Notes: a model not told the origin generated them from the sequence alone. DNA of 64,000 bases from Vulcanimicrobiota bacterium (GCA_050250895.1 JBFWNU010000001.1:3172891-3236890), one strand, 5' to 3'. Shown: positions 45,752 through 60,709, numbered from the stretch's first letter. A program made the numbers and translations.

Positions 45752-45784
45752 GGAAGGATTCTAACAGATGGACGCTCGCTTCGC

Positions 45785-45928
45785 GAGAAGGGAGCGGCCT
45801 TTGGCCGAGAAGGGAGCGGCCTTCGGCCGAGAAGGGAGCGGCCTTCGGCCGAGAAGGGAGCGGCCTTCGGCCGAGAAGGGAGCGGCCTTCGGCCGAGAAA
45901 GGAGCGGCCTGCGGCCGAGAAAGGAGCG
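45785..45928. repeat. Tandem array of 6.5 x 22-bp gagaagggagcggccttcggcc
   Basis: Units start at 45785, 45807, 45829, 45851, 45873, 45895 and 45917. Confidence 0.93.
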
Positions 45929-45973
45929 CTATCTCGCTTAGGCTCGATAGCGAGAGGGGAGCGAGGTTCGCTT

Positions 45974-46563
45974 CGCTCACCTCGAGGTTTTGGGATAGTC
46001 GACGCTTCGCGTCGTAAATCTGGGGCGGCTTCGCCGCCAGGTGGCTCGGCCCCGGCCCGGTCGCGTACAGCCAGCCCGGGTCGTTGTAAACAACCACTCC
46101 GGGTCGTTGTCGGCCCGCCCCGGGCAAGGCCGGGAAAAGAATGAGGAGTGGCCGTAGCCACTCCTTTTCTCGAAGCGAGCTCTGCGAGCTTCGCTCCCAT
46201 CTCCCGGCGAAGCCGGGCTCCCATCTCGAGGCCTCGCCTCGCTCCCTTCTCGCCAGCGAAGCGCAGCGCTCACCTCGAGGTTTTGGGATAGTCGACGCTT
46301 CGCGTCGTAAATCTGGGGCGGCTTCGCCGCCAGGTGGCTCGGACCCGGCCCGGTCGCGTACAGCCAGCCCGGGTCGTTGTAAACAACCACTCCGGGTCGT
46401 TGTCGGCCCGCCCCGGGCAAGCCCGGGAAAAGAAAAAGGAGTGGCCGTGGCCACTCCTTTCTCGAAGCGAGCTCTGCGAGCTTCGCTCCCATCTCCCGGC
46501 GAAGCCGGGCTCCCATCTCGAGGCCTTGCCTCGCTCCCATCTCCCGGCGAAGCCGGGCTCCCC
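45974..46563. repeat. Two tandem copies (293-bp period) of a ~270-bp multi-hairpin element
   Basis: 45974-46246 is nearly identical to 46267-46538; contains the cgacgcttcgcgtcg core and an aggagtggccgt(a/g)gccactcct hairpin. Confidence 0.93.
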
Positions 46564-46572
46564 GCGACGCGC

Positions 46573-48168
46573 TTAGCCTTTGTTCTGGCAGTTGCGCAGC
46601 TGGTCGCGCAGGCCTTTGGCTTCGTAAGCCAGGTCGCGCTTTTGACCTTCGAGGCCGCTGACTTCGCTGTTGAGCGAGCTGTGCTCGCCCCGCAGCCCGT
46701 CGGCCCGGCTCCGAATGTCGCTGGCTTCGCGGCGGGCCTGGTCGGCTTCGCGGCGCATTCCGGGCACGGCCATGCGAGCGGCGCTGGCTTGATTGCGCAG
46801 GCTGCTGGCATCGTCGCGGGCCCGGTCGGCGCGGCGCTCGGTCTCGGCCAACCGCTGTTCGTAAGGAGCCAGAGCTTCGCGGACTTTCTTGTCCACGGTC
46901 TGGGGAATCTCACGCTCGCGGGTGTCGAGCTGGCCCTGACGGGTGTCGAGCTGGCCTTTGCGGGTGTCGTATTGACCCTGCAGTTCGGCCTGCCGACCGT
47001 CGTAGAGTTCTTGCTTGCGAGCCTCGACCAGCTGATCCTGGTCGCGCTCGATGGTGTCGACCTGGCCTTTGAAGACCTGCAGGTCGACCTGACGCTGGTT
47101 GAGGCCGGTCTCGCGCTGGCCGAGGCCAGTGTTGGTCTCGTCGAAACGGCGCTGGGAGTCTTCTTGAACCAGCTGGTCGCGACGGGCTTCTTTGTCTTCG
47201 ATGCGCTGGTTCTGCTCACCCAGAGCAGTTTCACGGTGGTCGAGTTCGGTGGTGCGGGTCTCGTGGTTAGAGATGGCCGCGGCGTTGTTTTTGTCGAGTT
47301 CGGCAGCCAGCTGGTCGAGGCCGGACTTGGCCGCTTCCAGGCGGTTTTCTTTCTCGTCGAGCTGGAGCCACTGCTGGCTATTGTGGACCGCCTCGACACC
47401 ACTGGTGATGCCCGAGCGCACGGCCCGCAGCAGGAAGTATCCGCCAGCGGCGCCGACCACACCCATCGCCACTCCGCCGACGATAGCGCCGGTTTTCGCG
47501 GCTCCGGCCAGGGCGGCGAAGCTGAAGTCTTTGGCCATCAGGCCGGTGGTCAGGTTGGCAGCGCCTGCGATGGAGCCACCCAGGACCGCGCCGCCCAGAC
47601 CGCCCGTGGCGACTCCGCCAGCAGCCAGCAGGTAACCGACCGCGTCGAGGGCTTTGGGCAGGGGAGCCGGCCTTTTGCCAGGCACACGACCCGCGTCGGG
47701 GTCGTAGCCGAGGATTTTCTTGCCAGTCCACTGGATGGCTTTGGCCGGCAGGCTACCGAGGCCTTTTCCGACTTTGTAGCCGCCCACGATGCCGGCCGCA
47801 CCACCGATCAGGATACCGGCTTGAGCGCCGTAGGCCGCGGTGGTCAGCGAGGTGCCGAGGAACTGCATCACGCCGGTGGTCGAGACCGAGGCGATGGCGG
47901 GGCCGAGGCCACCACCGATGGCGGTTCCGAGGATAGCGCCGCCGACGACCCCGGCGTAACCGCCCGCGATGGCGGTGACGATGCCGGTGCCTCCACCGAC
48001 GGCCAGGCTCATGTCGTTGCCGACACCGACCATTCCGGCGCCGATCTCTTTACGAGCACGGCCCACGAAGGAGTCCGACGGCTGGTCCTGAGCCGGCGGA
48101 GCCGGCTGCTGTTCTTTGGCCGCGCGGGCCGGGTTGTAAGTCTGGGGTGTAACGTTGGTGAGTTTCAT
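46573..48168 (-). CDS. Glycine-zipper membrane domain + long coiled-coil protein (gene C)
   Basis: GGGGAG RBS; about four GxxxG-rich hydrophobic segments, then a heptad-rich region ending LRNCQNKG. Confidence 0.85.
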   Translation of the reverse strand: MKLTNVTPQTYNPARAAKEQQPAPPAQDQPSDSFVGRARKEIGAGMVGVGNDMSLAVGGGTGIVTAIAGGYAGVVGGAILGTAIGGGLGPAIASVSTTGVMQFLGTSLTTAAYGAQAGILIGGAAGIVGGYKVGKGLGSLPAKAIQWTGKKILGYDPDAGRVPGKRPAPLPKALDAVGYLLAAGGVATGGLGGAVLGGSIAGAANLTTGLMAKDFSFAALAGAAKTGAIVGGVAMGVVGAAGGYFLLRAVRSGITSGVEAVHNSQQWLQLDEKENRLEAAKSGLDQLAAELDKNNAAAISNHETRTTELDHRETALGEQNQRIEDKEARRDQLVQEDSQRRFDETNTGLGQRETGLNQRQVDLQVFKGQVDTIERDQDQLVEARKQELYDGRQAELQGQYDTRKGQLDTRQGQLDTREREIPQTVDKKVREALAPYEQRLAETERRADRARDDASSLRNQASAARMAVPGMRREADQARREASDIRSRADGLRGEHSSLNSEVSGLEGQKRDLAYEAKGLRDQLRNCQNKG

Positions 48169-48196
48169 TGTCTTAAATCTCCCTACCGGCTCCGCG

Positions 48197-49246
48197 TTAG
48201 ATGGACTTCCGGATGATGTTGACCAGAACACCGGTGGCTACACCGGCGCCGAGTCCGACGGCCGCACCGCCAGCCACGCCGTAGGCCATTCCGAAACGGC
48301 CCTCGACGTCGGCCGTGAGGTCGTGTTTCTCGACCTGCGGCTTGTGGATGATGGTGCCCCCCATGACGGGGTTGTTGGCGGTGACATCGCGCATGCCCGG
48401 GTTCTGGGCGTCGCTGCCATTGATGCCCTCGAACCAGTTCTGGGGCACCTGCCCGATGACTTGCGTCTGGGTGACCGGGGTCTCGGAGGTGTATTGCACC
48501 GTCTGGGAGTGGCTGGCTTCCAGGCTCGAGGCCACGAAGCCGGCCGCGGCACCGGCGGCTGCACCGGCCAGACCGAAGCGGACTAGCAGTTTGGTGTCGC
48601 CTTTGGTCTCGCGGCGGTCGCCACCTTCGTAGGCACCGTCAGGGATGAATTTGCGGGCCACCGTCATCGCGGCGCCGACACCGAAGCCGAGACCGGCGCC
48701 GATGCCCATTCCCACCAGGCCCGAGACCAGCGGGCTACCGTCACCGGCAGGAGTGATCTTGACCTCGCGGGTGGTGTAGCTGCCGACTCGCTCGGTGGTG
48801 GTGGAAGGCTCGTAGTTGTGCTGCCATCCCTGGATGCTGCCGTTGGCGTCGTTGCGAACCGTTTCGGTGGCAACCCAGGGCTCTTTGGCATCGACCATAC
48901 TGGTGCGCAGGATGTCGTGGTCGGTCTTGATGATCTCGTAGCTGGGAGCGCTCAAGAACGAGGCCAGCATCTCTTTGCCGAGGCCGATGCTTCCACCGAC
49001 GGCTGCGCCAGCCAGGGCGCCGCCCATCATCAGCTCGGAGTTCTTGAAGTTCTTCAGAGCCGGGGGGCGGACAGCCGTGTCCTGGTCGAGGCGATCGAGG
49101 TCGTCGGAGACTTTGCCGAGTCCATCCTGGACCTGACCGTACTTGTTGTCGATAGCGGTGGCGTTCTCGTCGGGCACGAAGTCTTTCTTTTCGCCCGCGA
49201 TGTGTTTGGTTACGAAGTTGCTTACTCTGGTGGTTAGGTTGATCAT
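48197..49246 (-). CDS. Four glycine-zipper segments with two inserted beta-rich loops (gene B)
   Basis: AGGAG RBS; GGALAGAAVGG, GLVGMGIGAGLG, GLAGAAAGAAAG and GVAGGAAVGLGAG; paralog of 59690-60709. Confidence 0.85.
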   Translation of the reverse strand: MINLTTRVSNFVTKHIAGEKKDFVPDENATAIDNKYGQVQDGLGKVSDDLDRLDQDTAVRPPALKNFKNSELMMGGALAGAAVGGSIGLGKEMLASFLSAPSYEIIKTDHDILRTSMVDAKEPWVATETVRNDANGSIQGWQHNYEPSTTTERVGSYTTREVKITPAGDGSPLVSGLVGMGIGAGLGFGVGAAMTVARKFIPDGAYEGGDRRETKGDTKLLVRFGLAGAAAGAAAGFVASSLEASHSQTVQYTSETPVTQTQVIGQVPQNWFEGINGSDAQNPGMRDVTANNPVMGGTIIHKPQVEKHDLTADVEGRFGMAYGVAGGAAVGLGAGVATGVLVNIIRKSI

Positions 49247-49258
49247 GTTCGTGGGCTC

Positions 49259-50842
49259 CTAGTGACCGCAGTTCGCCAGCTTGCTGCGAAGGGTCGAGAT
49301 ATCCGACTGGAGGCGACCAATCTCGGTGCGCAGGTTACCCACTCGGGTGCGCAAGCTCGAGATCTCGTTGCTGAGTCGGCTGTAGTCGCTCTGGGCTGCG
49401 TTACGCGAGTTGACGGCGCTGTCGCGGTCGCCTTTCGCCGAAGCGAGCTCGGCGGCAGCCATGTTGTAGTCTTGCTGGGCCGAGCTGCGCTCGGACTGAG
49501 CCCGACGTTCGTCGTTCTCGGCGTCGCGAATGCGGCTTTCGAGGCGGTTCTTCTGGGGGTCGAACTCGCTGCGGAAGCGCTGCTCGATTTCGCTGTTGAT
49601 CTTCTGCTCTTGCGTGTTGAGCCGCGACTCGTAGTCGTCGAGCTGCTTCTGCATCTCGGCGTACTGAGCTTCGAGTTTGGGACGAAGCTCGGCGTAGGCG
49701 GCCTGACCGCGCTGTTCGATCGAGGCCTCGAGAGCGGCTTTGCGCTCTTTCTGCGTCTTCTCGAAGCCGTCGAGTTCGGTCTTGAAGCTGTCGAGCTTTT
49801 CGGTCCACTCTTTGAGGGTCAGTCCGTTGTCGACCTTCTCGGAGCCGAAGCGCTTTTCGTAGTCGGCCTTACCGGCATCAGAAATGTTCTCGTCGATGGC
49901 TTTTTCACGCTGGTTGGCATCGCCTTCCCGCTGCTCGACCCCCTGTTCGCGAGTGTCGAGAGCGGAGGTCTGCTCCTGGTGGTAAGTCCGCTTGGTATCG
50001 GCTTGAGCGGTGAGTCCGTCCTGGCGAACCTTGAGCTCTTCCTCCAGGGCGTCCAGGCGCGAGGCTTTTTGGCCGAGGTTTTCGCCATCGCCGGTCTTGT
50101 TCCAGATTTTGGAGGCCTGGTTGTAGACCCAGCCACCGGCGTTGGTGACCGTCTTGGCGGTGGCTACGCCACCTTTGGCACCGATGAAGCCCATCGTGAC
50201 CGCACCCACAGCCGCGCCGATTTTGGCGCCGGTCCCGGCCGTGCTAAAGTCGAAGCCGCTGGCGAAGAGAGAGCCGGTGGCGCCGATGCCGGCACCGATG
50301 ATGGCTCCTCCGGTGGCTCCGGCCGCGGCCCCGGTGCCAGCGATGGCGCTGGCCGCGAAGTTCGAAAATCCAGTGAGTTGTTTAAGGTCGTCAGGTTTGC
50401 TCTGACCGACGTCGGCTCCGAAGATGCGTCCGACCGATTTGCCGATGCTGACACCGGTGGCGATACCGCCGGCCAGACCAGCCGCGCCGCCGATGAACAG
50501 GCCCGCGCGAGCGGCAACCGAAGTGGAGCTGAGCACTCCCGAGAGGAAGCTTCCGGCGCCCTGCGAGGTGACCGTTCCGACTACCGGGCCGATGGCGCTG
50601 CCGAAGAGCGAGCCGATGATGGCTCCACCCAGCACGCCGGCATAGAGTCCGGGAAGGGCGAAGGTCAGGGCGCCTACGCCGCCGAGGGCGAACTTGACAA
50701 AGTTGCCACCCTCACTACCGCCGTCGTTGGCGGATTCAACTTTGTCCTGAGGCTCGGCGGCGGCCGGGGTGGCCGGTTTCTCCGGGGGGGCCGCATTGGC
50801 CACGTGGAGCTGCGAGCGCACAGGCATCCTTTCAATTCTCAT
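49259..50842 (-). CDS. Glycine-zipper membrane domain + long coiled-coil protein (gene A)
   Basis: GGAGGT RBS; same architecture as gene C (GLYAGVLGGAIIG vs GGYAGVVGGAILG); ends LANCGH. Confidence 0.85.
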   Translation of the reverse strand: MRIERMPVRSQLHVANAAPPEKPATPAAAEPQDKVESANDGGSEGGNFVKFALGGVGALTFALPGLYAGVLGGAIIGSLFGSAIGPVVGTVTSQGAGSFLSGVLSSTSVAARAGLFIGGAAGLAGGIATGVSIGKSVGRIFGADVGQSKPDDLKQLTGFSNFAASAIAGTGAAAGATGGAIIGAGIGATGSLFASGFDFSTAGTGAKIGAAVGAVTMGFIGAKGGVATAKTVTNAGGWVYNQASKIWNKTGDGENLGQKASRLDALEEELKVRQDGLTAQADTKRTYHQEQTSALDTREQGVEQREGDANQREKAIDENISDAGKADYEKRFGSEKVDNGLTLKEWTEKLDSFKTELDGFEKTQKERKAALEASIEQRGQAAYAELRPKLEAQYAEMQKQLDDYESRLNTQEQKINSEIEQRFRSEFDPQKNRLESRIRDAENDERRAQSERSSAQQDYNMAAAELASAKGDRDSAVNSRNAAQSDYSRLSNEISSLRTRVGNLRTEIGRLQSDISTLRSKLANCGH

Positions 50843-51047
50843 CTGTTTCTACCTCCGGTTGGGAGTCATGCTCCTGCCTACTGTATGCAAGCAGTTTACG
50901 GAGGCGGGCTTAAAGAACGATGAAAACCGAAAAGTTTTTTTGAGATCGCGTAGTTACGCAATTCTCGCGGCTCTCTCAGAATATTCCCGGGGGGTTGGCC
51001 AGAGGTTGGAACCTGGTGACGAATGTTGCCGGGCCGTGGGTTCGAAG

Positions 51048-52676
51048 TTAAGTCTCGTGAATTTCTGGATCCGTTTCCCAGCGCAGGTGAGCTGGGACCA
51101 CCCACCCCGGTTCGAGCACGCGGGCCAGTCTGGTGCAAGTTGTCGCTCGGTCGACCCGCCCGAGGTGGTATTCGCCAAAGGCCAGGTGGTCCAGGGCCAG
51201 GGGCTGGAACTCGACCCCCAGGCTGCGGACCCACAGTTGGAGCTGCTCCACCCCCCGGGGCAGTTCACCTCGCAGAATGGCCAGGGCCGCCCGGGCGGCG
51301 TTGGCTACGGCCGAACGGGGGGCCGTAGTGGCCGCTTCGTCGAGCAGACCCTGAGCACCGTCGAGGTCTTGTCTGAGCAGACGGGTCCAGGCCACACAGC
51401 CCAGCAAGGCGGGGCGGATCTCTTCGAGCCCCTCCACCTCGAGCAAATCCTCGAATTGGTCGTCGCGACACCCGAACAGCCGCAGAATGGCATTTTCAGG
51501 CTCAAGCTGACGGTAGCGATCGAGAATGTTGCCGGCCACCGACTCGCACTCGATCGTCTGCAACGACCTCAGGGCGAAAGTCGCTCGAGTCCTGGTATCG
51601 AGGTGCCAGGGAGGGATGGAGTCCGTCCAGGTGCTGAGAATGGCCGACCCGTCGGTGGGCACGCCGCCGGCAATCCACGGGACCAGGTTGCCCAGGCCGA
51701 CCCATAGATTCACCGCCCAGAGCATAAGCTCAGGCGCCCATTGGTGGAGACTGGCCTCGGTCGGCAAGACCGCCGGCCAGCAGGCCAGGGCCACCAGCAG
51801 GTTGGCCAGGGGTCCGGCCGCATAGACAAGCGTTCGTTTCCAGCGAAATCCATCCATGGTGGTGGGCTGTAGCAGCACTCGACCCCCAACTGGAAACAGC
51901 CGCAGTTGGAAGACGATAAACCGGAAGGTTCTGGTGAGCAGCGGCCTTCCCTGACCGATCGTGATGGCCACGATGTCATAGCCCACAAGCTGGGCAGCCA
52001 GCCAGTGGGCAGCTTCGTGGAGAATGCTGGCCAGGCTGCGCCACACCAGGGCCACGGCCAGATTGAGCAAAACGAAGTCACCCTCGTAGGCGGTCACCGC
52101 CACCAGCAGCAAACCGGCCAGGGCCAGAGCCCGTAACATGAAGGCGGCTCGCCTGCTGGTCCTTCTCTGGCATGTCAGGCAGAATCCATCGTCAAAGGCC
52201 GAAGCGAGCCAGGCGCTGAGGCCGCATTTCTTGCATGAGTATGTGACCTCGGGCTCGAACTCGACATCACTCATGCTGGTGAGGCTGTCAGCCAGAACCT
52301 GCTCGTCGAGGCATCCTTCCAGCGCTTTGGCGGCCTGGCTGCCCTCGGCCCGGGCCAGACCCCAGAGCAGATGATGGCTGTCGACCGAGGTGGAGGCCAC
52401 CGCCTGAGCTCTTTTCAAGGCCAGGTTGATGGCGGCGATGGTGGGCTCGCTAAAGGGGGCCGGGTTGACCAGTTTGCCAAGCAGAAAGGTACGCCGGCCG
52501 GGACCCTCATCGTCGGGTCGGCACTGGTCGAGCGCCGGGGCGGTTTTCACTAACCGGCAGGCCACGCCCCGTTCGCTCGCCAGCAGGCGCCGCAACACCA
52601 GGTCGGTGGTAACCTTCTGGCATGGAGCCGAAAGGACGGTCAGCACCGTTGCACTAAAGGCAATCGCCATGACCAA
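51048..52676 (-). CDS. Clp N-terminal repeat + CxxC ribbon + site-2 (M50) metalloprotease + TPR fusion; true start probably near 52470
   Basis: VDSHHLLWGL, CKKC..CLTC, LHEAAH, AGPLAN and NLVP..TDG. Confidence 0.75.
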   Translation of the reverse strand: MVMAIAFSATVLTVLSAPCQKVTTDLVLRRLLASERGVACRLVKTAPALDQCRPDDEGPGRRTFLLGKLVNPAPFSEPTIAAINLALKRAQAVASTSVDSHHLLWGLARAEGSQAAKALEGCLDEQVLADSLTSMSDVEFEPEVTYSCKKCGLSAWLASAFDDGFCLTCQRRTSRRAAFMLRALALAGLLLVAVTAYEGDFVLLNLAVALVWRSLASILHEAAHWLAAQLVGYDIVAITIGQGRPLLTRTFRFIVFQLRLFPVGGRVLLQPTTMDGFRWKRTLVYAAGPLANLLVALACWPAVLPTEASLHQWAPELMLWAVNLWVGLGNLVPWIAGGVPTDGSAILSTWTDSIPPWHLDTRTRATFALRSLQTIECESVAGNILDRYRQLEPENAILRLFGCRDDQFEDLLEVEGLEEIRPALLGCVAWTRLLRQDLDGAQGLLDEAATTAPRSAVANAARAALAILRGELPRGVEQLQLWVRSLGVEFQPLALDHLAFGEYHLGRVDRATTCTRLARVLEPGWVVPAHLRWETDPEIHET

Positions 52677-56224: not shown

Positions 56225-58552
56225 GTGTCCTCGCGTTCACCCTTGTTCTCGGACCTGACCGCCTCCTTTGTCCTTTTCCTGATCGCCATTCCGCTCAACC
56301 TGGGTATCGCCCTGGCCAGTGGTGCCACGGCCGTCCAGGGTCTGGCGGCCGGCGTCATCGGAGGGCTGGTGGTGGGACTTTTGGCCGGTTGTCCCTTGAT
56401 GGTCAGTGGCCCGGCCACCGGTCTTATCGCCATCGTCTGGCAGATCACCGATGAGCACGGCATGGTCATGTTGGGACCGGTGGTCCTGGCCGCGGGTCTG
56501 CTCCAGATCCTCATCGGCCTGGCCGGCCTTGGCCCCTGGTTTCGAGCGGTTGCTCCCGCCGTTATCCAGGGTATGCTGGCCGGCATCGGAATCCTCATCT
56601 TCGCCAGCCAGTTCCACGTCATGCTGGGCCAGCGCCCCGAGAAGGTGGGTCTGACCAACCTCTTGATGATTCCCGGAGCCCTTTACCACGGGCATTTCCA
56701 CCCGGCTTTGCTGGGAGCACTGACCATTCTCGTGATTCTTGTTTGGAATCGAATTCCCGGCCGAGCCAAGCTCATCCCCGGGGCGCTACCCGGAGTGGGC
56801 GCGGCCATCCTGGTGACGTGGGCGTCCGGCTTCAAAGTGGCGATGGTCGAAGTGCCGGTGGATCTGGCCTCCGAGTTTCGCCTGACCTCGCTCGAGCAGC
56901 TAAGGCATTTGAGCGACTTGCCGGTGCTCGAGTCCGTGCTGGCCCTGGCCTTCATCGCGACAGCCCAAACCCTGCTCACGGCCACCGCGGTGGATCGCCT
57001 TCACGACCGAGAGCGAACCAACTACAATCGCGAAGTGGTGGCCCAGGGAGTCGGCAATCTGCTGGCCGGCTGGCTGGGACTGCTGCCCCTATGCGGGGTG
57101 ATCGTCCGCAGTGCAGCCAATCTTCAGGCCGGCGCCGTCAGTCGGCGTGCCACTGTGCTGCAGGGGGTTTGGGTGGCCCTGTTCGCGTTCTGCCTGGCCC
57201 CGGCCCTGAGGTATATTCCGGTGGCCGCCCTGGCGGCTGTGCTCGTCTTGACCGGTATTCGTCTGGTCAATCTCGACGCGGTGCGGGAATTGTCGCAGTT
57301 TGGTCGGGGAGAGCTGGTCACCTATTGGGGCACTCTCGTCACGGTGGTGTCGGTCGACCTGCTCAGTGGCATCGCCGTAGGCTTCGCGCTTTCGGCTGTT
57401 CGTCTGGTTCATAATCTGACCAACTGCCAAACCCGGGTCTACAAGGACACAGATTCCGGGGCCACCGTGGTGGAAGTCAAGGGGAGCGCCACCTTCTTCA
57501 CTCTACCTGAATTGGCGCGCGTGCTCGAAGAGGTCCCACCCGGCCGCGAGGTGCACGTCTTCGTCAGCCATCTCTACTACATCGACCACGCCTGCCTCGA
57601 GCACATCATGACCTGGGAGGAACAGTACATCAGCCAGGGCGGCCAGGTCTTCATCGAGTGGGACCACCTCATCGGCCGTTTCAAGAAGCCGACCACCTCG
57701 ACCAACGATGTTCTCGAACAGGTAAGCCGGGCGACGGCCTACGAGACCCTGGTGGCCCAAGCTCCTGTGCTCGACCGAGAGAGCTACTCTTCGCACCAGG
57801 AGCTAGTCGACGAGATCTGCCAACTGATGCAACGGCGTCAACCCAGAGTCAAGCCCGCCAGGCTGGCTACGCGCCTGATTTACGAGCTACAGCTCGGCGG
57901 TTCACCCTTCGTGGCCGGCTCTGGACTGCCCAATCTACGGGTGAATGAACTGCAGCGCCAGCACCTGATCCTGGTGAGGGTGCGTCGCGGAATCACGTTC
58001 ATCCACCCGGTCAGTGGCCAGGGGCACACGGCCTTCTGCCTGCTGTTTCTGTTTAGTCCTGAAGAGGCGGCGGGCGAGCATATTCGCACCCTGGCCTCGC
58101 TCATCTCGCGAGCCGAAGAGGATTGCTTGACCGAATGGCTCGAGGCCCGAAGCGACGAGGAGCTGCGTCAGACTTTCCTCAAGCACCGTCGTTTCGTGTC
58201 GGTGGTCTTAAAGAGTCAGGCTGCCACGGCGGTCCTCCTGGACCGCGCCGTCTGGCAGGTGGCCGAGTTGCTGCCCCCCAGCGCTCTCATCGCCCTGGTC
58301 GAACGCGAGGGGGAAAGTCTGGTGCCCAAAGGCAAAACGATCCTGCGCGAGGGCGATCGGTTGATAATCTTCGGCGAGGACCACGACATCGACTTGCTCT
58401 TCCGCCGCTACGTCAACAACGAGCCCTCGCTGCGCTCACCTCGAGGTTTTGGGATAGTCGACGCTTCGCGTCGTAAATCTGGGGCGGCTTCGCCTCAAGG
58501 TGGCCCGGCGAGGCCCGGTCAAGGCCGGGAAAAGAAAGAGGAGTGGCCGTAG
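56225..58552 (+). CDS. SulP/SLC26 anion transporter with STAS-like, PTS-IIA-like and RCK_C domains; C-terminus derived from a repeat
   Basis: AIPLNLGIALASG, VSGPATGL, REVVAQGVGN, GVIVRSAAN; PKGKTILREGDRL (RCK_C). Confidence 0.85.
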   Translation: MSSRSPLFSDLTASFVLFLIAIPLNLGIALASGATAVQGLAAGVIGGLVVGLLAGCPLMVSGPATGLIAIVWQITDEHGMVMLGPVVLAAGLLQILIGLAGLGPWFRAVAPAVIQGMLAGIGILIFASQFHVMLGQRPEKVGLTNLLMIPGALYHGHFHPALLGALTILVILVWNRIPGRAKLIPGALPGVGAAILVTWASGFKVAMVEVPVDLASEFRLTSLEQLRHLSDLPVLESVLALAFIATAQTLLTATAVDRLHDRERTNYNREVVAQGVGNLLAGWLGLLPLCGVIVRSAANLQAGAVSRRATVLQGVWVALFAFCLAPALRYIPVAALAAVLVLTGIRLVNLDAVRELSQFGRGELVTYWGTLVTVVSVDLLSGIAVGFALSAVRLVHNLTNCQTRVYKDTDSGATVVEVKGSATFFTLPELARVLEEVPPGREVHVFVSHLYYIDHACLEHIMTWEEQYISQGGQVFIEWDHLIGRFKKPTTSTNDVLEQVSRATAYETLVAQAPVLDRESYSSHQELVDEICQLMQRRQPRVKPARLATRLIYELQLGGSPFVAGSGLPNLRVNELQRQHLILVRVRRGITFIHPVSGQGHTAFCLLFLFSPEEAAGEHIRTLASLISRAEEDCLTEWLEARSDEELRQTFLKHRRFVSVVLKSQAATAVLLDRAVWQVAELLPPSALIALVEREGESLVPKGKTILREGDRLIIFGEDHDIDLLFRRYVNNEPSLRSPRGFGIVDASRRKSGAASPQGGPARPGQGREKKEEWP

Positions 58553-58558
58553 CCACTC
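58433..58558. repeat. Internally deleted third copy of the ~270-bp element
   Basis: cgctcacctcgagg...ggcttcgcc identical to the start of 45974; ends at the gagtggccgtagccactc hairpin. Confidence 0.9.
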
Positions 58559-58872
58559 GTGCCGAGGAACTGCATCACGCCGGTGGTCGAGACCGAGGCG
58601 ATGGCGGGGCCGAGGCCACCACCGATGGCGGTTCCGAGGATAGCGCCGCCGACGACCCCGGCGTAACCGCCCGCGATGGCGGTGACGATACCGGTGCCGC
58701 CACCGACGGCCAGGCTCATGTCGTTGCCGACACCGACCATTCCGGCGCCAATTTCGCGCCTGGCTCGGCTGACGAAGGAATCGGGCGGGGGAGCCGGCTC
58801 ACCACCTTCCGCTGGCGTGCCGGCCGAGCGAGACCCACCTACTCGCGGGTTCGCGTGGTTAATGACTTTCTC
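58519..58872 (-). pseudogene. Truncated paralog of glycine-zipper gene C
   Basis: 58559-58749 matches 47852-48042 at 189/191 nt; the ATG-equivalent codon reads GAG; reading frame runs into the repeat. Confidence 0.8.
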
Positions 58873-58986: not shown

Positions 58987-59733
58987 ATGACCCCGCTAGA
59001 AAAGATGGTGACCCTGTCTATCCTGTGGCTGTGCCTGGCTGAGGCTGGTTCGCTGGTCGGCGGACTAAAGGGCAAAAGGCTGGGCCGCAACCTGGGTTTC
59101 GGCGCCGCCGCCCTGGGGGTGGGAGTGGCTTTGCGTCACCTGCACGAGTGGATGGCCGGGCTGGCTCTGTTCCACTGGGGCAATCGTTGGCTTGAAACCC
59201 TGGCCTGTGTGCTGGTGGCCGAGCTGTTTGGCTGGACCTGTCACTACGTCAAGCACGTCCATCCCTGGCTGTGGAAGTTTCATTTCCAGCATCACCGCGA
59301 AGAGGAGTACAACCTCTGGCTGACCACCCATACTCACGCTCTCGAGGTGCTCGTCTCGGGCACGGTGATGGCCGCCTTGTTGGCGGTGTGCGGTTTCTCC
59401 AACCAGGTGGTGGGCATTTACCTTCTCTATTACAGCCTGGTCAAGTTCTTCCAACACTCCAGCCGCGACTACCGGCTCGGCCCCCTGGGCTATCTGGTGA
59501 TCACGCCCGCCTACCATCGATGGCACCACGAGATCGAGAGCCGGTGCAATTATGGCGTGACCCTGACGATCTTTGACGTGTTGTTCGGCACGGTGCGCTG
59601 GCCCGACCAGGTCAAGCCCGAGCGCTATGGCGTCAAGGGCGAGCTACCCTATGGCTTCTGGGCCGAGCATCTCTGGTTCTTGCGAAGGCCTACCAGCGCT
59701 TCGGAGGGTCTTCGCCAGCGGCAACCTTCATGA
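58987..59733 (+). CDS. Sterol desaturase / fatty acid hydroxylase family
   Basis: His boxes HYVKH, HFQHH, FQHS and YHRWHH; NYG..IFDVLFGT. Confidence 0.88.
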   Translation: MTPLEKMVTLSILWLCLAEAGSLVGGLKGKRLGRNLGFGAAALGVGVALRHLHEWMAGLALFHWGNRWLETLACVLVAELFGWTCHYVKHVHPWLWKFHFQHHREEEYNLWLTTHTHALEVLVSGTVMAALLAVCGFSNQVVGIYLLYYSLVKFFQHSSRDYRLGPLGYLVITPAYHRWHHEIESRCNYGVTLTIFDVLFGTVRWPDQVKPERYGVKGELPYGFWAEHLWFLRRPTSASEGLRQRQPS

Positions 59734-60709
59734 GGATTCCGGCCGCCACCCCGGCTCCCAATCCCGTCAAGGCACCGGCGCCCAGCCCGATGGCCGCCCC
59801 CCGGGCCGGGGTCAACCAGTGACTGTTCTCGACCGTGTTGGTTGCTTCGAAGCGACCGGAGAAGACCGAGCGCACGATTTGCTGGCCACTACCAGCGAAG
59901 GGGGTCGGGCCGAAGCGGTCGCCCACCTCGTGATAGTAGATCTTGTGACCGGGATGGAACAGGTCGTTGGGGATGCTCGACTTCTGCGATACGCGCGGGA
60001 TATAGCCGAGTAGTTCGTTCTGATAGACGGGCCTCTGAATCACCTGGTCGAGCACCACATTGTGGTTCTGGGCGACGGTGCCGGCCCACAGACCGGCTAG
60101 CGCTCCGACGCCGGCCCCGACTCCCGCCCCGATCCAGGGGGCGCGGTCGGCCTGGCGAGCCTGGTTCTTCTTCTCTTCGGTGGTGGGCACCTTAGGGGCG
60201 TCCCAGGGGTCGCCGATGTCGTCGGTGACGATGTTGGTCAAACTGGCCACGGCCGCCCCCACCAGGGCACCCACGCCCAGGCCGACGGCCGTGCCCAGTA
60301 AGGGGCCGAAGGCTGCCGTATGCTTGAGAACCTGCTTCTCTTCGAACTGACCGGTCCCGCGGTGGCTGAGGATGGGATCCCAGTCGGCCGGGTCGTGGTG
60401 CCACTGGGTCTGCATGTTGCCGTCAGCGTCGGTGTAGTAGGTGACGTAGTCGTTGGAAGGGTCGTAGTCGGCTCCCACCAGCGTCGGGCGGGTCAGTTCG
60501 ACCCGCGAAGTCTCGATGGTGACCTGGTCGTTGGCCAGGTTGCTCAAGCCCCAGGCGAAGCCGGCGGCACCGCCCAGGACGGCTCCCACTCCAGCTCCTA
60601 CCAGCGGCTTGCTGAGCCCCTCGCGTCGGGCCTTGTTGACGAACGAGTCGCGAGGCTTGTAGTCGTTGCTTGTTCCTATATGTTTGTGGATGAACGAAGT
60701 CAGGCTCAT
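59690..60709 (-). CDS. Glycine-zipper protein, paralog of gene B
   Basis: Same four-segment layout; FIHKHIG vs FVTKHIAG; LGYIPR vs IGQVPQ; GLGAGVAAGIL vs GLGAGVATGVL. Confidence 0.85.
   Translation of the reverse strand: MSLTSFIHKHIGTSNDYKPRDSFVNKARREGLSKPLVGAGVGAVLGGAAGFAWGLSNLANDQVTIETSRVELTRPTLVGADYDPSNDYVTYYTDADGNMQTQWHHDPADWDPILSHRGTGQFEEKQVLKHTAAFGPLLGTAVGLGVGALVGAAVASLTNIVTDDIGDPWDAPKVPTTEEKKNQARQADRAPWIGAGVGAGVGALAGLWAGTVAQNHNVVLDQVIQRPVYQNELLGYIPRVSQKSSIPNDLFHPGHKIYYHEVGDRFGPTPFAGSGQQIVRSVFSGRFEATNTVENSHWLTPARGAAIGLGAGALTGLGAGVAAGILMKVAAGEDPPKRW

Follow-up and report, generated by a model that had tools for sequence, protein, structure and literature searches.

Undescribed glycine-zipper membrane proteins encoded in a conserved gene order in some Eremiobacterota lineages, and their tentative reading as an inner-membrane scaffold

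A stretch of 64,000 nucleotides (nt) from a Vulcanimicrobiota bacterium (GCA_050250895.1 JBFWNU010000001.1:3172891-3236890), referred to here as the window and numbered from its first letter, contains three adjoining genes, A, B and C, that encode undescribed glycine-zipper proteins. The genes follow one another in this order on the minus strand (Table 1), with a gap of 12 nt (49247-49258) between A and B and of 28 nt (48169-48196) between B and C. The three co-oriented, closely spaced genes that a first prediction, made from the sequence alone, had placed here are thus confirmed in coordinates and gaps. All three are real genes and not chance open reading frames (ORFs); homologs with a conserved gene order are present in other genomes. 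The longest frame of C (46573..48231, GTG start, 552 residues) would overlap B, and the start is placed instead at the ATG at 48168, since the N-termini of the homologs agree with it and a GGGAG Shine-Dalgarno sequence (48179-48183) lies 10-11 nt upstream. The corresponding elements of A and B are GGAGG at 50852-50856 and AGGAG at 49256-49260, both with a spacing that matches that of C. The GC content of the region, 0.63-0.67, is the same as in the rest of the window.

Proteins A and C are full-length paralogs, as first proposed, with 30% identity over 546 aligned columns (BLASTP, E 6e-23). Each has a polar N-terminus of about 45-55 residues, a zipper region of about 190 residues, here called the N-module, a coiled coil of about 270 residues and a Cys-containing tail. 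In both proteins Gly makes up 24-25% of residues 46-235, Ala 18-19% and charged residues only 7-8%, and hydropathy and composition divide this hydrophobic region into two blocks separated by a charged linker. The two-block arrangement is supported by a natural split in two genomes (G020 and G007), in which the A/C gene consists of two ORFs that abut at the charged linker. In the family alignment, G72, G73, G81, G95, G118, G178, G179, G183, G209, G213 and G224 of the N-module (A numbering) are invariant. Outside the hydrophobic region, 37% of the residues are charged and hydrophobic residues recur with a period of 3.5, characteristic of a heptad coiled coil; the AlphaFold2 (AF2) model of A has long helices at residues 256-334 and 343-526, with a predicted local distance difference test score (pLDDT) of 70-84. 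The C-terminal tails, LANCGH in A and LRNCQNKG in C, hold the sole Cys of each protein. Composition, period and tails together bear out the proposed plan of zipper segments followed by a coiled coil with a near-terminal Cys. Among 23 aligned A/C family members, 12 have a Cys within the last 12 residues, and in 11 of those 12 it is the only one. The N-module itself is joined to varying C-terminal parts, which may be the coiled coil, nothing, or a second hydrophobic domain. The N-termini are polar, in agreement with the predicted lack of a Sec or Tat signal, which was judged by inspection only, with no predictor run. A loose N-terminal P-x-[DE]-x-[FYV] motif occurs in 14 of the 23 sequences, and a similar D-[FY] in B and in a further zipper family, X (about 330 residues); it was not compared with chance and is not used here.

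Protein B has a different plan, with an N-terminal helical stretch of about 70 residues, four glycine-zipper helices and two beta domains. Helices 1 and 2 enclose one beta domain and helices 3 and 4 enclose the other. Each of the four helices has invariant Gly residues at positions i, i+4 and i+8 in all 24 sequences of the B alignment, and the protein has no Cys. In the AF2 model the beta domains have a pLDDT of 76-93 and the zipper helices are of low confidence. Of the duplicated zipper-beta-zipper unit originally described in B, the repeated architecture stands, but the duplication does not, since BLASTP finds no sequence similarity between the two halves. Nor is B a paralog of A and C, the hhalign probability between B and the N-module being 12%. 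A divergent B paralog in the same window, B2, has the same four zipper helices and no adjoining A/C-like gene. Its Pfam matches are sub-threshold: Gly-zipper_YMGG at E 5.5e-4 (20 bits against a cut-off of 28.9) and DUF1269 at E 3.8e-4.

Table 1. Positions of the three genes, their domains and related copies. Positions without a prefix refer to the window.
Feature	Position	Strand	Extent	Remarks and basis
Gene A	49259..50842	minus	527 aa, ATG start	ORF call and translation; homologs align from residue 1
A N-module	50147..50707	minus	residues 46-232	blocks 46-142 and 158-232; hydropathy, composition
A coiled coil	49262..50077	minus	residues 256-527	single Cys at 525; AF2, periodicity
Gene B	48197..49246	minus	349 aa, ATG start	ORF call, alignment, AF2 model
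B beta domain 1	48752..48949	minus	residues 100-165	AF2 strands 102-165, pLDDT 84-93
B beta domain 2	48305..48505	minus	residues 248-314	AF2 strands 248-314, pLDDT 76-92
Gene C	46573..48168	minus	531 aa, ATG start	translation, BLASTP to A
C N-module	47416..48006	minus	residues 55-251	hydropathy, family alignment
C coiled coil	46576..47382	minus	residues 263-531	period 3.52; single Cys at 527
B2	59690..60709	minus	339 aa	divergent B paralog, 24-29% identity; genome search E 4.8e-8
Split A/C genes	L037 7081-8834; L038 4198-5957		~172 aa and ~411 aa	first zipper block; second block and coiled coil
Second A/C locus	G000:C6:515012-522721			two adjoining A/C-like genes, no B
N-module-only gene	contig C7 311330-312133			no B beside
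Best X copy	G000:C1:3245395-3246849		484-aa frame	E 1.5e-67; ~8.5 kb past window end

The families of A, B and C are undescribed, as the original prediction held. No Pfam or NCBIfam family matches any of the three proteins, the only hits being sub-threshold coiled-coil matches such as SMC and TPR_MLP1_2, and none of 16 N-module sequences matches any Pfam family. With hmmscan, no match at E up to 1 is found to the Pfam glycine-zipper families PF13441, PF13488, PF13436 and PF05433. Searches of PADLOC (JetC and LmuB at 12-15 bits) and of PHROGs give coiled-coil noise only, and profile searches of the Protein Data Bank (PDB) sequences with the N-module and B give nothing better than E 0.03, with prion-type glycine-zipper and coiled-coil noise. 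The structural comparisons agree. The B model has no Foldseek match in the PDB at E 0.001 or better, and its best VIA-align score against 48,161 chains is a Z of 7.7 (VceC and a TIM23 subunit), under the noise level of the tool; SlyB (7ojf) is among the structural rows for B with Z 6.2 and 22% identity, under the same bar. The A model has a best Foldseek E of 2.8. Its rows to the SmhB/AhlB pores (E 4.6-6.3, template modelling score at most 0.13, root-mean-square deviation 43 Å) are without weight as a fold comparison, the pLDDT of the N-module being below 50. Foldseek, one of the checks that the original prediction had proposed, gives neither model a confident match to a characterised family. 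The ESM Atlas holds nothing usable for B, and for the N-module gives three clusters of 'hypothetical protein', commonest in Melainabacteria, with a score of 0.80 that shuffled proteins reach one third of the time, so that they are no more than a lead. When residues 1-250 of A served as the query for homologs, the outcome was 2 proteins, which is uninformative. Prediction of an A+B complex from family alignments scored 0.00 in two runs, which is no verdict, and nothing is drawn from it. A literature search found no publication on these proteins.

The three families are also rare. Of 5.8 billion clustered proteins, 9 are related to B, and the nearest of these, at 96%, is a hypothetical protein of a Candidatus Eremiobacteraeota bacterium; of 1.84 billion representatives, 74 are related to A at E 0.001 or better. 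A related-locus search with two single proteins (P0063 and P0009) found no relative. In a phylum sample of 401 genomes, the N-module occurs in 34 and B in 40; the genomes are related, so that the counts overstate independence. Both are present in 33 genomes and both absent from 360; the N-module occurs without B in a single genome, which is 78% complete, and B without the N-module in seven, all of them weak matches (E 1.8e-8 to 9.4e-4). Within this sample only some Eremiobacterota lineages have the families. Every sampled genome of three taxonomic families carries the N-module (15/15 in f1, 5/5 in f3 and 2/2 in f11) and B is concentrated in the same ones, while in the largest family, f15, both are found in 0 of 297 genomes.

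The gene order is conserved in nearly all of the loci compared. About 13 kb around the best B match was taken from 17 of the 40 B-positive genomes and, together with the window, these 18 loci were compared by clustering all ORFs of at least 90 residues. B clusters are present in 18/18 loci, and in 17/18 the gene immediately upstream, on the strand of B, is A/C-like, 3-82 nt away as read from the coordinates. Family X occurs in 7/18 loci and BtpA in 5/18, and besides these and the A/C and B clusters no ORF cluster is common to more than four of the 18. Two further clusters, found in 12 and 11 loci, were dropped; they lie on the strand opposite to A, B and C and were taken to be shadow frames of GC-rich DNA. 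The A-B-C order is found in six loci, four of which have an additional N-module-only gene; one A/C-like gene followed by B in nine; two A/C-like genes followed by B in two; and B alone in one. A locus has from one to five zipper genes (N-module-only, A-like, B, C-like and X), and this varying number fits subunits of one assembly. The synteny that the original prediction proposed to examine is thus conserved, in adjacency as in co-occurrence (33 of the 34 N-module genomes), and a functional link between A/C-type and B-type genes is supported. At the genus level, identities are 55% for A and 59% for B, close to the 61% of BtpA. With family-wide presence, matching GC content and BtpA beside 5/18 loci, the pattern looks like that of vertically inherited, core-like genes.

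Further copies occur in the genome from which the window comes (9.5 Mb, 99.6% complete), with seven paralog matches to A, three to B and six to X. Besides the second A/C locus and the N-module-only gene (Table 1), a further N-module, elsewhere on contig 1, is joined to a different hydrophobic domain, and the B-like genes are B2 and one on contig 5. The A/C locus on contig 6 has two flanking proteins, a coiled-coil protein of 1301 residues, which has a single hydrophobic segment and ends in a tail rich in Gly and Ser, and an HExxH protein of 255 residues; neither has a Pfam match. X may possibly be a distant relative of the N-module, with an hhalign probability of 77% (E 2e-5) that may reflect composition. 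Two separate matches to the X model lie in the single frame of the best X copy, which suggests an internal repeat. That copy is followed by an ankyrin-like protein and two PilT-like genes, by sequence reading only.

A, B and C are almost certainly membrane proteins, and together with the adjacency and co-occurrence described above this upholds the original view of a linked set of membrane-inserting proteins. The distribution of Lys and Arg gives an indication of topology. In the 23 A/C sequences their frequency per 100 residues is 11 at the N-terminus, 13.8 for the linker and 18.9 immediately behind the N-module, and only 1.7 and 1.2 for the loops within the two blocks. For 24 B sequences it is 24.5 in the short central loop and 27.4 in the tail, with about 10 for the beta domains. 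Under the positive-inside rule, A and C would cross the membrane about four times and have their two termini and the coiled coil on the cytoplasmic side, and the beta domains of B would face outward. The terminal Cys would then be cytoplasmic as well, which makes the disulfide first proposed between A and C doubtful.

The reading favoured here, held tentatively and at somewhat less than even confidence, is that A, B and C form an undescribed, lineage-restricted, hetero-oligomeric scaffold in the inner membrane of the producing cell and are not a secreted pore or translocon. A and C would each insert two glycine-zipper helical hairpins, and their N-terminus, charged linker and coiled coil would remain cytoplasmic. 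B would insert its four zipper helices, with the beta domains towards the periplasm or cell surface and the N-terminal helix in the cytoplasm. Packing of the small-residue faces of the zipper helices could then produce a hetero-oligomer, from which the rods of A and C, up to about 27-40 nm if extended, would reach inward as a scaffold, spacer or tether, while the beta domains of B touch the envelope. Contact among the subunits is suggested by the linkage of the genes, and the scaffold or tether role by analogy. ZorA/ZorB, Mic10/Mic60, CURT1, subunits e and g of ATP synthase, and Mdm33 all have oligomerising transmembrane helices of small residues and a long coiled coil on one side, and ZorAB has a partner with an outward-facing domain. 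These membrane-anchored assemblies would resemble A, B and C in the way they work only, and no homology to them was found. As to the Zorya and MotAB stators in particular, A, B and C have no MotA_ExbB match, no PADLOC Zor match and no conserved acidic residue in their helices. A resident multi-subunit complex is preferred because of the A/C-B adjacency, the co-occurrence, the variable number of zipper genes, the family-wide presence, the ordinary composition and the apparent topology. A bolder and distinctly less probable version is that the proteins form the core of an undescribed membrane machine, in which a zipper ring or bundle of A, C, the N-module-only paralogs and X surrounds B, and cytoplasmic stalks couple an envelope-facing beta-domain sensor or anchor to the cell interior.

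Several observations speak against a resident scaffold. A conserved Lys, Arg or Gln at residue 111 lies on the modelled outer side and fits the topology poorly; AF2 confidence is below 60 in every hydrophobic helix; and the positive-inside rule is the topology's sole support. A cytoplasmic coiled coil also leaves the tail Cys retained in 12/23 members without a role, and an extracytoplasmic disulfide would suit this residue better. The N-module with its varied C-terminal parts resembles modular polymorphic toxins, and a four-helix membrane protein encoded directly after A resembles the immunity gene of a pore toxin. Beyond the genus level, A and B are 38-45% identical, against 54-57% for BtpA, a faster divergence than that of this one comparison gene. 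Finally, PMC9259500 suggests a predatory lifestyle for large-genome Eremiobacterota, a lineage that may or may not include the present genome.

Possible export routes bear on the alternatives. The genome has two full-length FHIPEP genes, both flagellar, one with MotA, FliF and FliG and the other with FliM and an FlgE-type gene. The full-length FHIPEP genes thus give no non-flagellar injectisome, other injectisome markers not having been searched. The sheath family of the type VI secretion system (TssC) was not found in the genome. In the 18 loci no exporter, other transporter, lysis or mobile-element gene is conserved near the operon; type I and type VII systems were not searched genome-wide. 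Eight further Pfam matches above the cut-off, on contigs C1, C6, C7 and C8, cover only the cytoplasmic C-terminal half of FHIPEP (positions ~322-656), in frames of 379-1024 residues, most of them without hydrophobic segments (for example C6:529401-530381); they are an unusual expansion of the docking domain of the type III export gate.

The chief rival explanation, to which a rather low probability is given, is that A and C are bacteriocin-like pore toxins that depolarise membranes and that B, encoded downstream, is the inner-membrane immunity protein. The order of an A/C-like gene followed by B in 17/18 loci, the variable C-terminal parts of the N-module and the near absence of Cys all agree with this, as would the predatory lifestyle suggested in PMC9259500 for some large-genome Eremiobacterota. 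There is also a partial parallel in CdzC and CdzD of Caulobacter, whose extended glycine zippers are filled with hydrophobic residues and drive killing; according to PMC5380434, these are two related zipper proteins co-encoded with a membrane protein, and the Cdz immunity protein is located in the inner membrane. The same paper gives CdzC and CdzD only 86 and 84 residues, an RTX-like N-terminal signal and adjoining type I exporter genes, cdzAB, and describes no coiled coil (PMC5380434), whereas A and C have more than 500 residues and coiled coils of 270 residues, with no exporter conserved nearby. As a four-helix membrane protein encoded directly after A, B resembles the immunity proteins of pore-forming colicin and Cdz systems in position, and yet B is large, conserved, with two beta domains and an N-terminal helix, unlike small immunity proteins, and a single B would have to serve one to three A/C-like genes with a mutual identity of only about 30%. 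N-module genes occur without B as well, for example on contig C7, and their near-universal presence in whole families and stable neighbourhood differ from the patchy distribution usual for toxin islands. Conserved neighbours of an exporter, lysis or mobile-element kind are absent, Pfam and NCBIfam give no colicin or bacteriocin match, and no Pfam colicin pore-domain family matches at E up to 1. A secreted multi-component translocon or alpha-pore toxin, the type of apparatus originally proposed, is very improbable. Like the alpha-pore toxins (AhlABC/SmhABC, Hbl/Nhe, MakABE and XaxAB), A, B and C are encoded by adjoining genes, two of them for paralogous proteins with hydrophobic and helical segments, and the combination of hydrophobic lobes and coiled coils with a polar N-terminus that lacks a Sec signal recalls the translocators of type III secretion systems and the chlamydial Inc proteins. 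However, the hydrophobic part of A and C consists of about 190 N-terminal residues, about four times longer than in those toxins and not a hairpin in a head domain, and B belongs to a different family. The SmhB/AhlB rows for A do not amount to a match, the MakE model gives 10 bits where its cut-off is 360, and translocators of the YopB/IpaB and YopD/IpaC types have no Pfam or NCBIfam match at E up to 1. With no sequence match, no usable fold match, only flagellar loci for the full-length FHIPEP genes, no TssC, no conserved exporter and a taxonomic pattern like that of a core gene set, the pore, translocon or contact-killing reading is not upheld.

Two other readings leave the proteins resident in the producing cell. 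One, which is unlikely, takes them as a membrane-stabilising or stress complex like the zipper proteins of the SlyB and YMGG types, or as a gated channel in the cell's own membrane. The helices share the GxxxGxxxG pattern of the Pfam glycine-zipper families (Gly-zipper_YMGG, Gly-zipper_Omp and Rick_17kDa_Anti/SlyB), and SlyB combines a zipper hairpin with a beta domain. The sub-threshold matches of B2 to Gly-zipper_YMGG and DUF1269, the SlyB row for B, which is nonetheless under the noise bar, and the many paralogs in the genome favour this reading. Against it, A, B and C match none of those families even at E up to 1, and the zipper-beta-zipper order of B, present twice, differs from theirs. 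A lipoprotein signal is lacking by inspection: the lipobox Cys of the SlyB type is absent from the polar N-termini, the single Cys of A and C being C-terminal and B having none. The coiled coils would be unexplained, and the zipper helices have no invariant charged or polar residue that could line a pore. The other reading, which has little probability, is a tether that spans the periplasm, with a zipper anchor in the inner membrane, coiled coils crossing the periplasm and a terminal disulfide between A and C or between two A subunits. It would account for the single C-terminal Cys retained in 12/23 members and for a rod length of the order of the periplasm width, and exported proteins are often Cys-poor. 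However, Lys and Arg favour a cytoplasmic N-terminus, linker and coiled coil, no signal peptide is seen by inspection, and the Cys is absent from 11/23 members.

Parts of the stretch are also present in sequencing runs with the labels activated sludge, wastewater or bioreactor sludge. One DNA run has a contig of 5,065 nt that spans B and A and differs at 206 of 2,952 nt, and a second contig that spans C and differs at 91 of 1,479 nt, so that a relative, about 93-94% identical, has the same gene order. In RNA libraries from two studies, contigs of 220-856 nt from a relative 92-97% identical fall on parts of C, B and A, and one spans the B-C junction, although a contig is not a transcript. They are a weak hint that the genes are expressed, since RNA libraries can contain DNA. 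The parts of the stretch without such a contig are not interpreted.

The neighbours of the operon in the window are an M50 peptidase, BtpA and a lactonase-type propeller. The M50-type protein (542 residues, 51048-52676, minus strand) has a Peptidase_M50 match at E 2e-15 and a weak Clp_N match. Its gene lies 205 nt upstream of A on the same strand, a neighbourhood that the other loci do not conserve; its only relatives are weak and occur in three related genomes. Downstream of C, a 22-nt unit is present in about seven tandem copies (45762-45959), and there is a tandem duplication with a spacing of 293 nt (45969-46167 and 46262-46460). Parts of the repeat element around 45762-46543 recur at 58427-58558, and its core of about 66-90 nt has 74 blastn matches genome-wide. 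In a related strain (sequencing run X1), one contig skips 295 nt within this repeat region. A 230-nt copy of the 5' part of C (47852-48081) lies at 58559-58788, about 950 nt downstream of B2, and is 93% identical; the copy (ORF 58519..58740, minus strand) encodes C residues ~46-107 and then runs into the dispersed repeat. It looks like a recent fragmentary duplication, a piece of a pseudogene.

In the sampled genomes of several families of a phylum that is almost uncultured, three undescribed membrane-protein families occur in multiple copies and in a fixed gene order. If A and C are toxins and B their immunity protein, they would be a new class of large glycine-zipper bacteriocins. If the proteins instead form one complex, this would be a new combination of glycine-zipper helices, outward-facing beta domains and very long coiled coils, and in the less probable form of a membrane machine it would represent a new kind of device for transmembrane scaffolding or signal transmission, known to date from some Eremiobacterota lineages only. 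Such a complex could be relevant to the organisation or use of the envelope in these large-genome bacteria.

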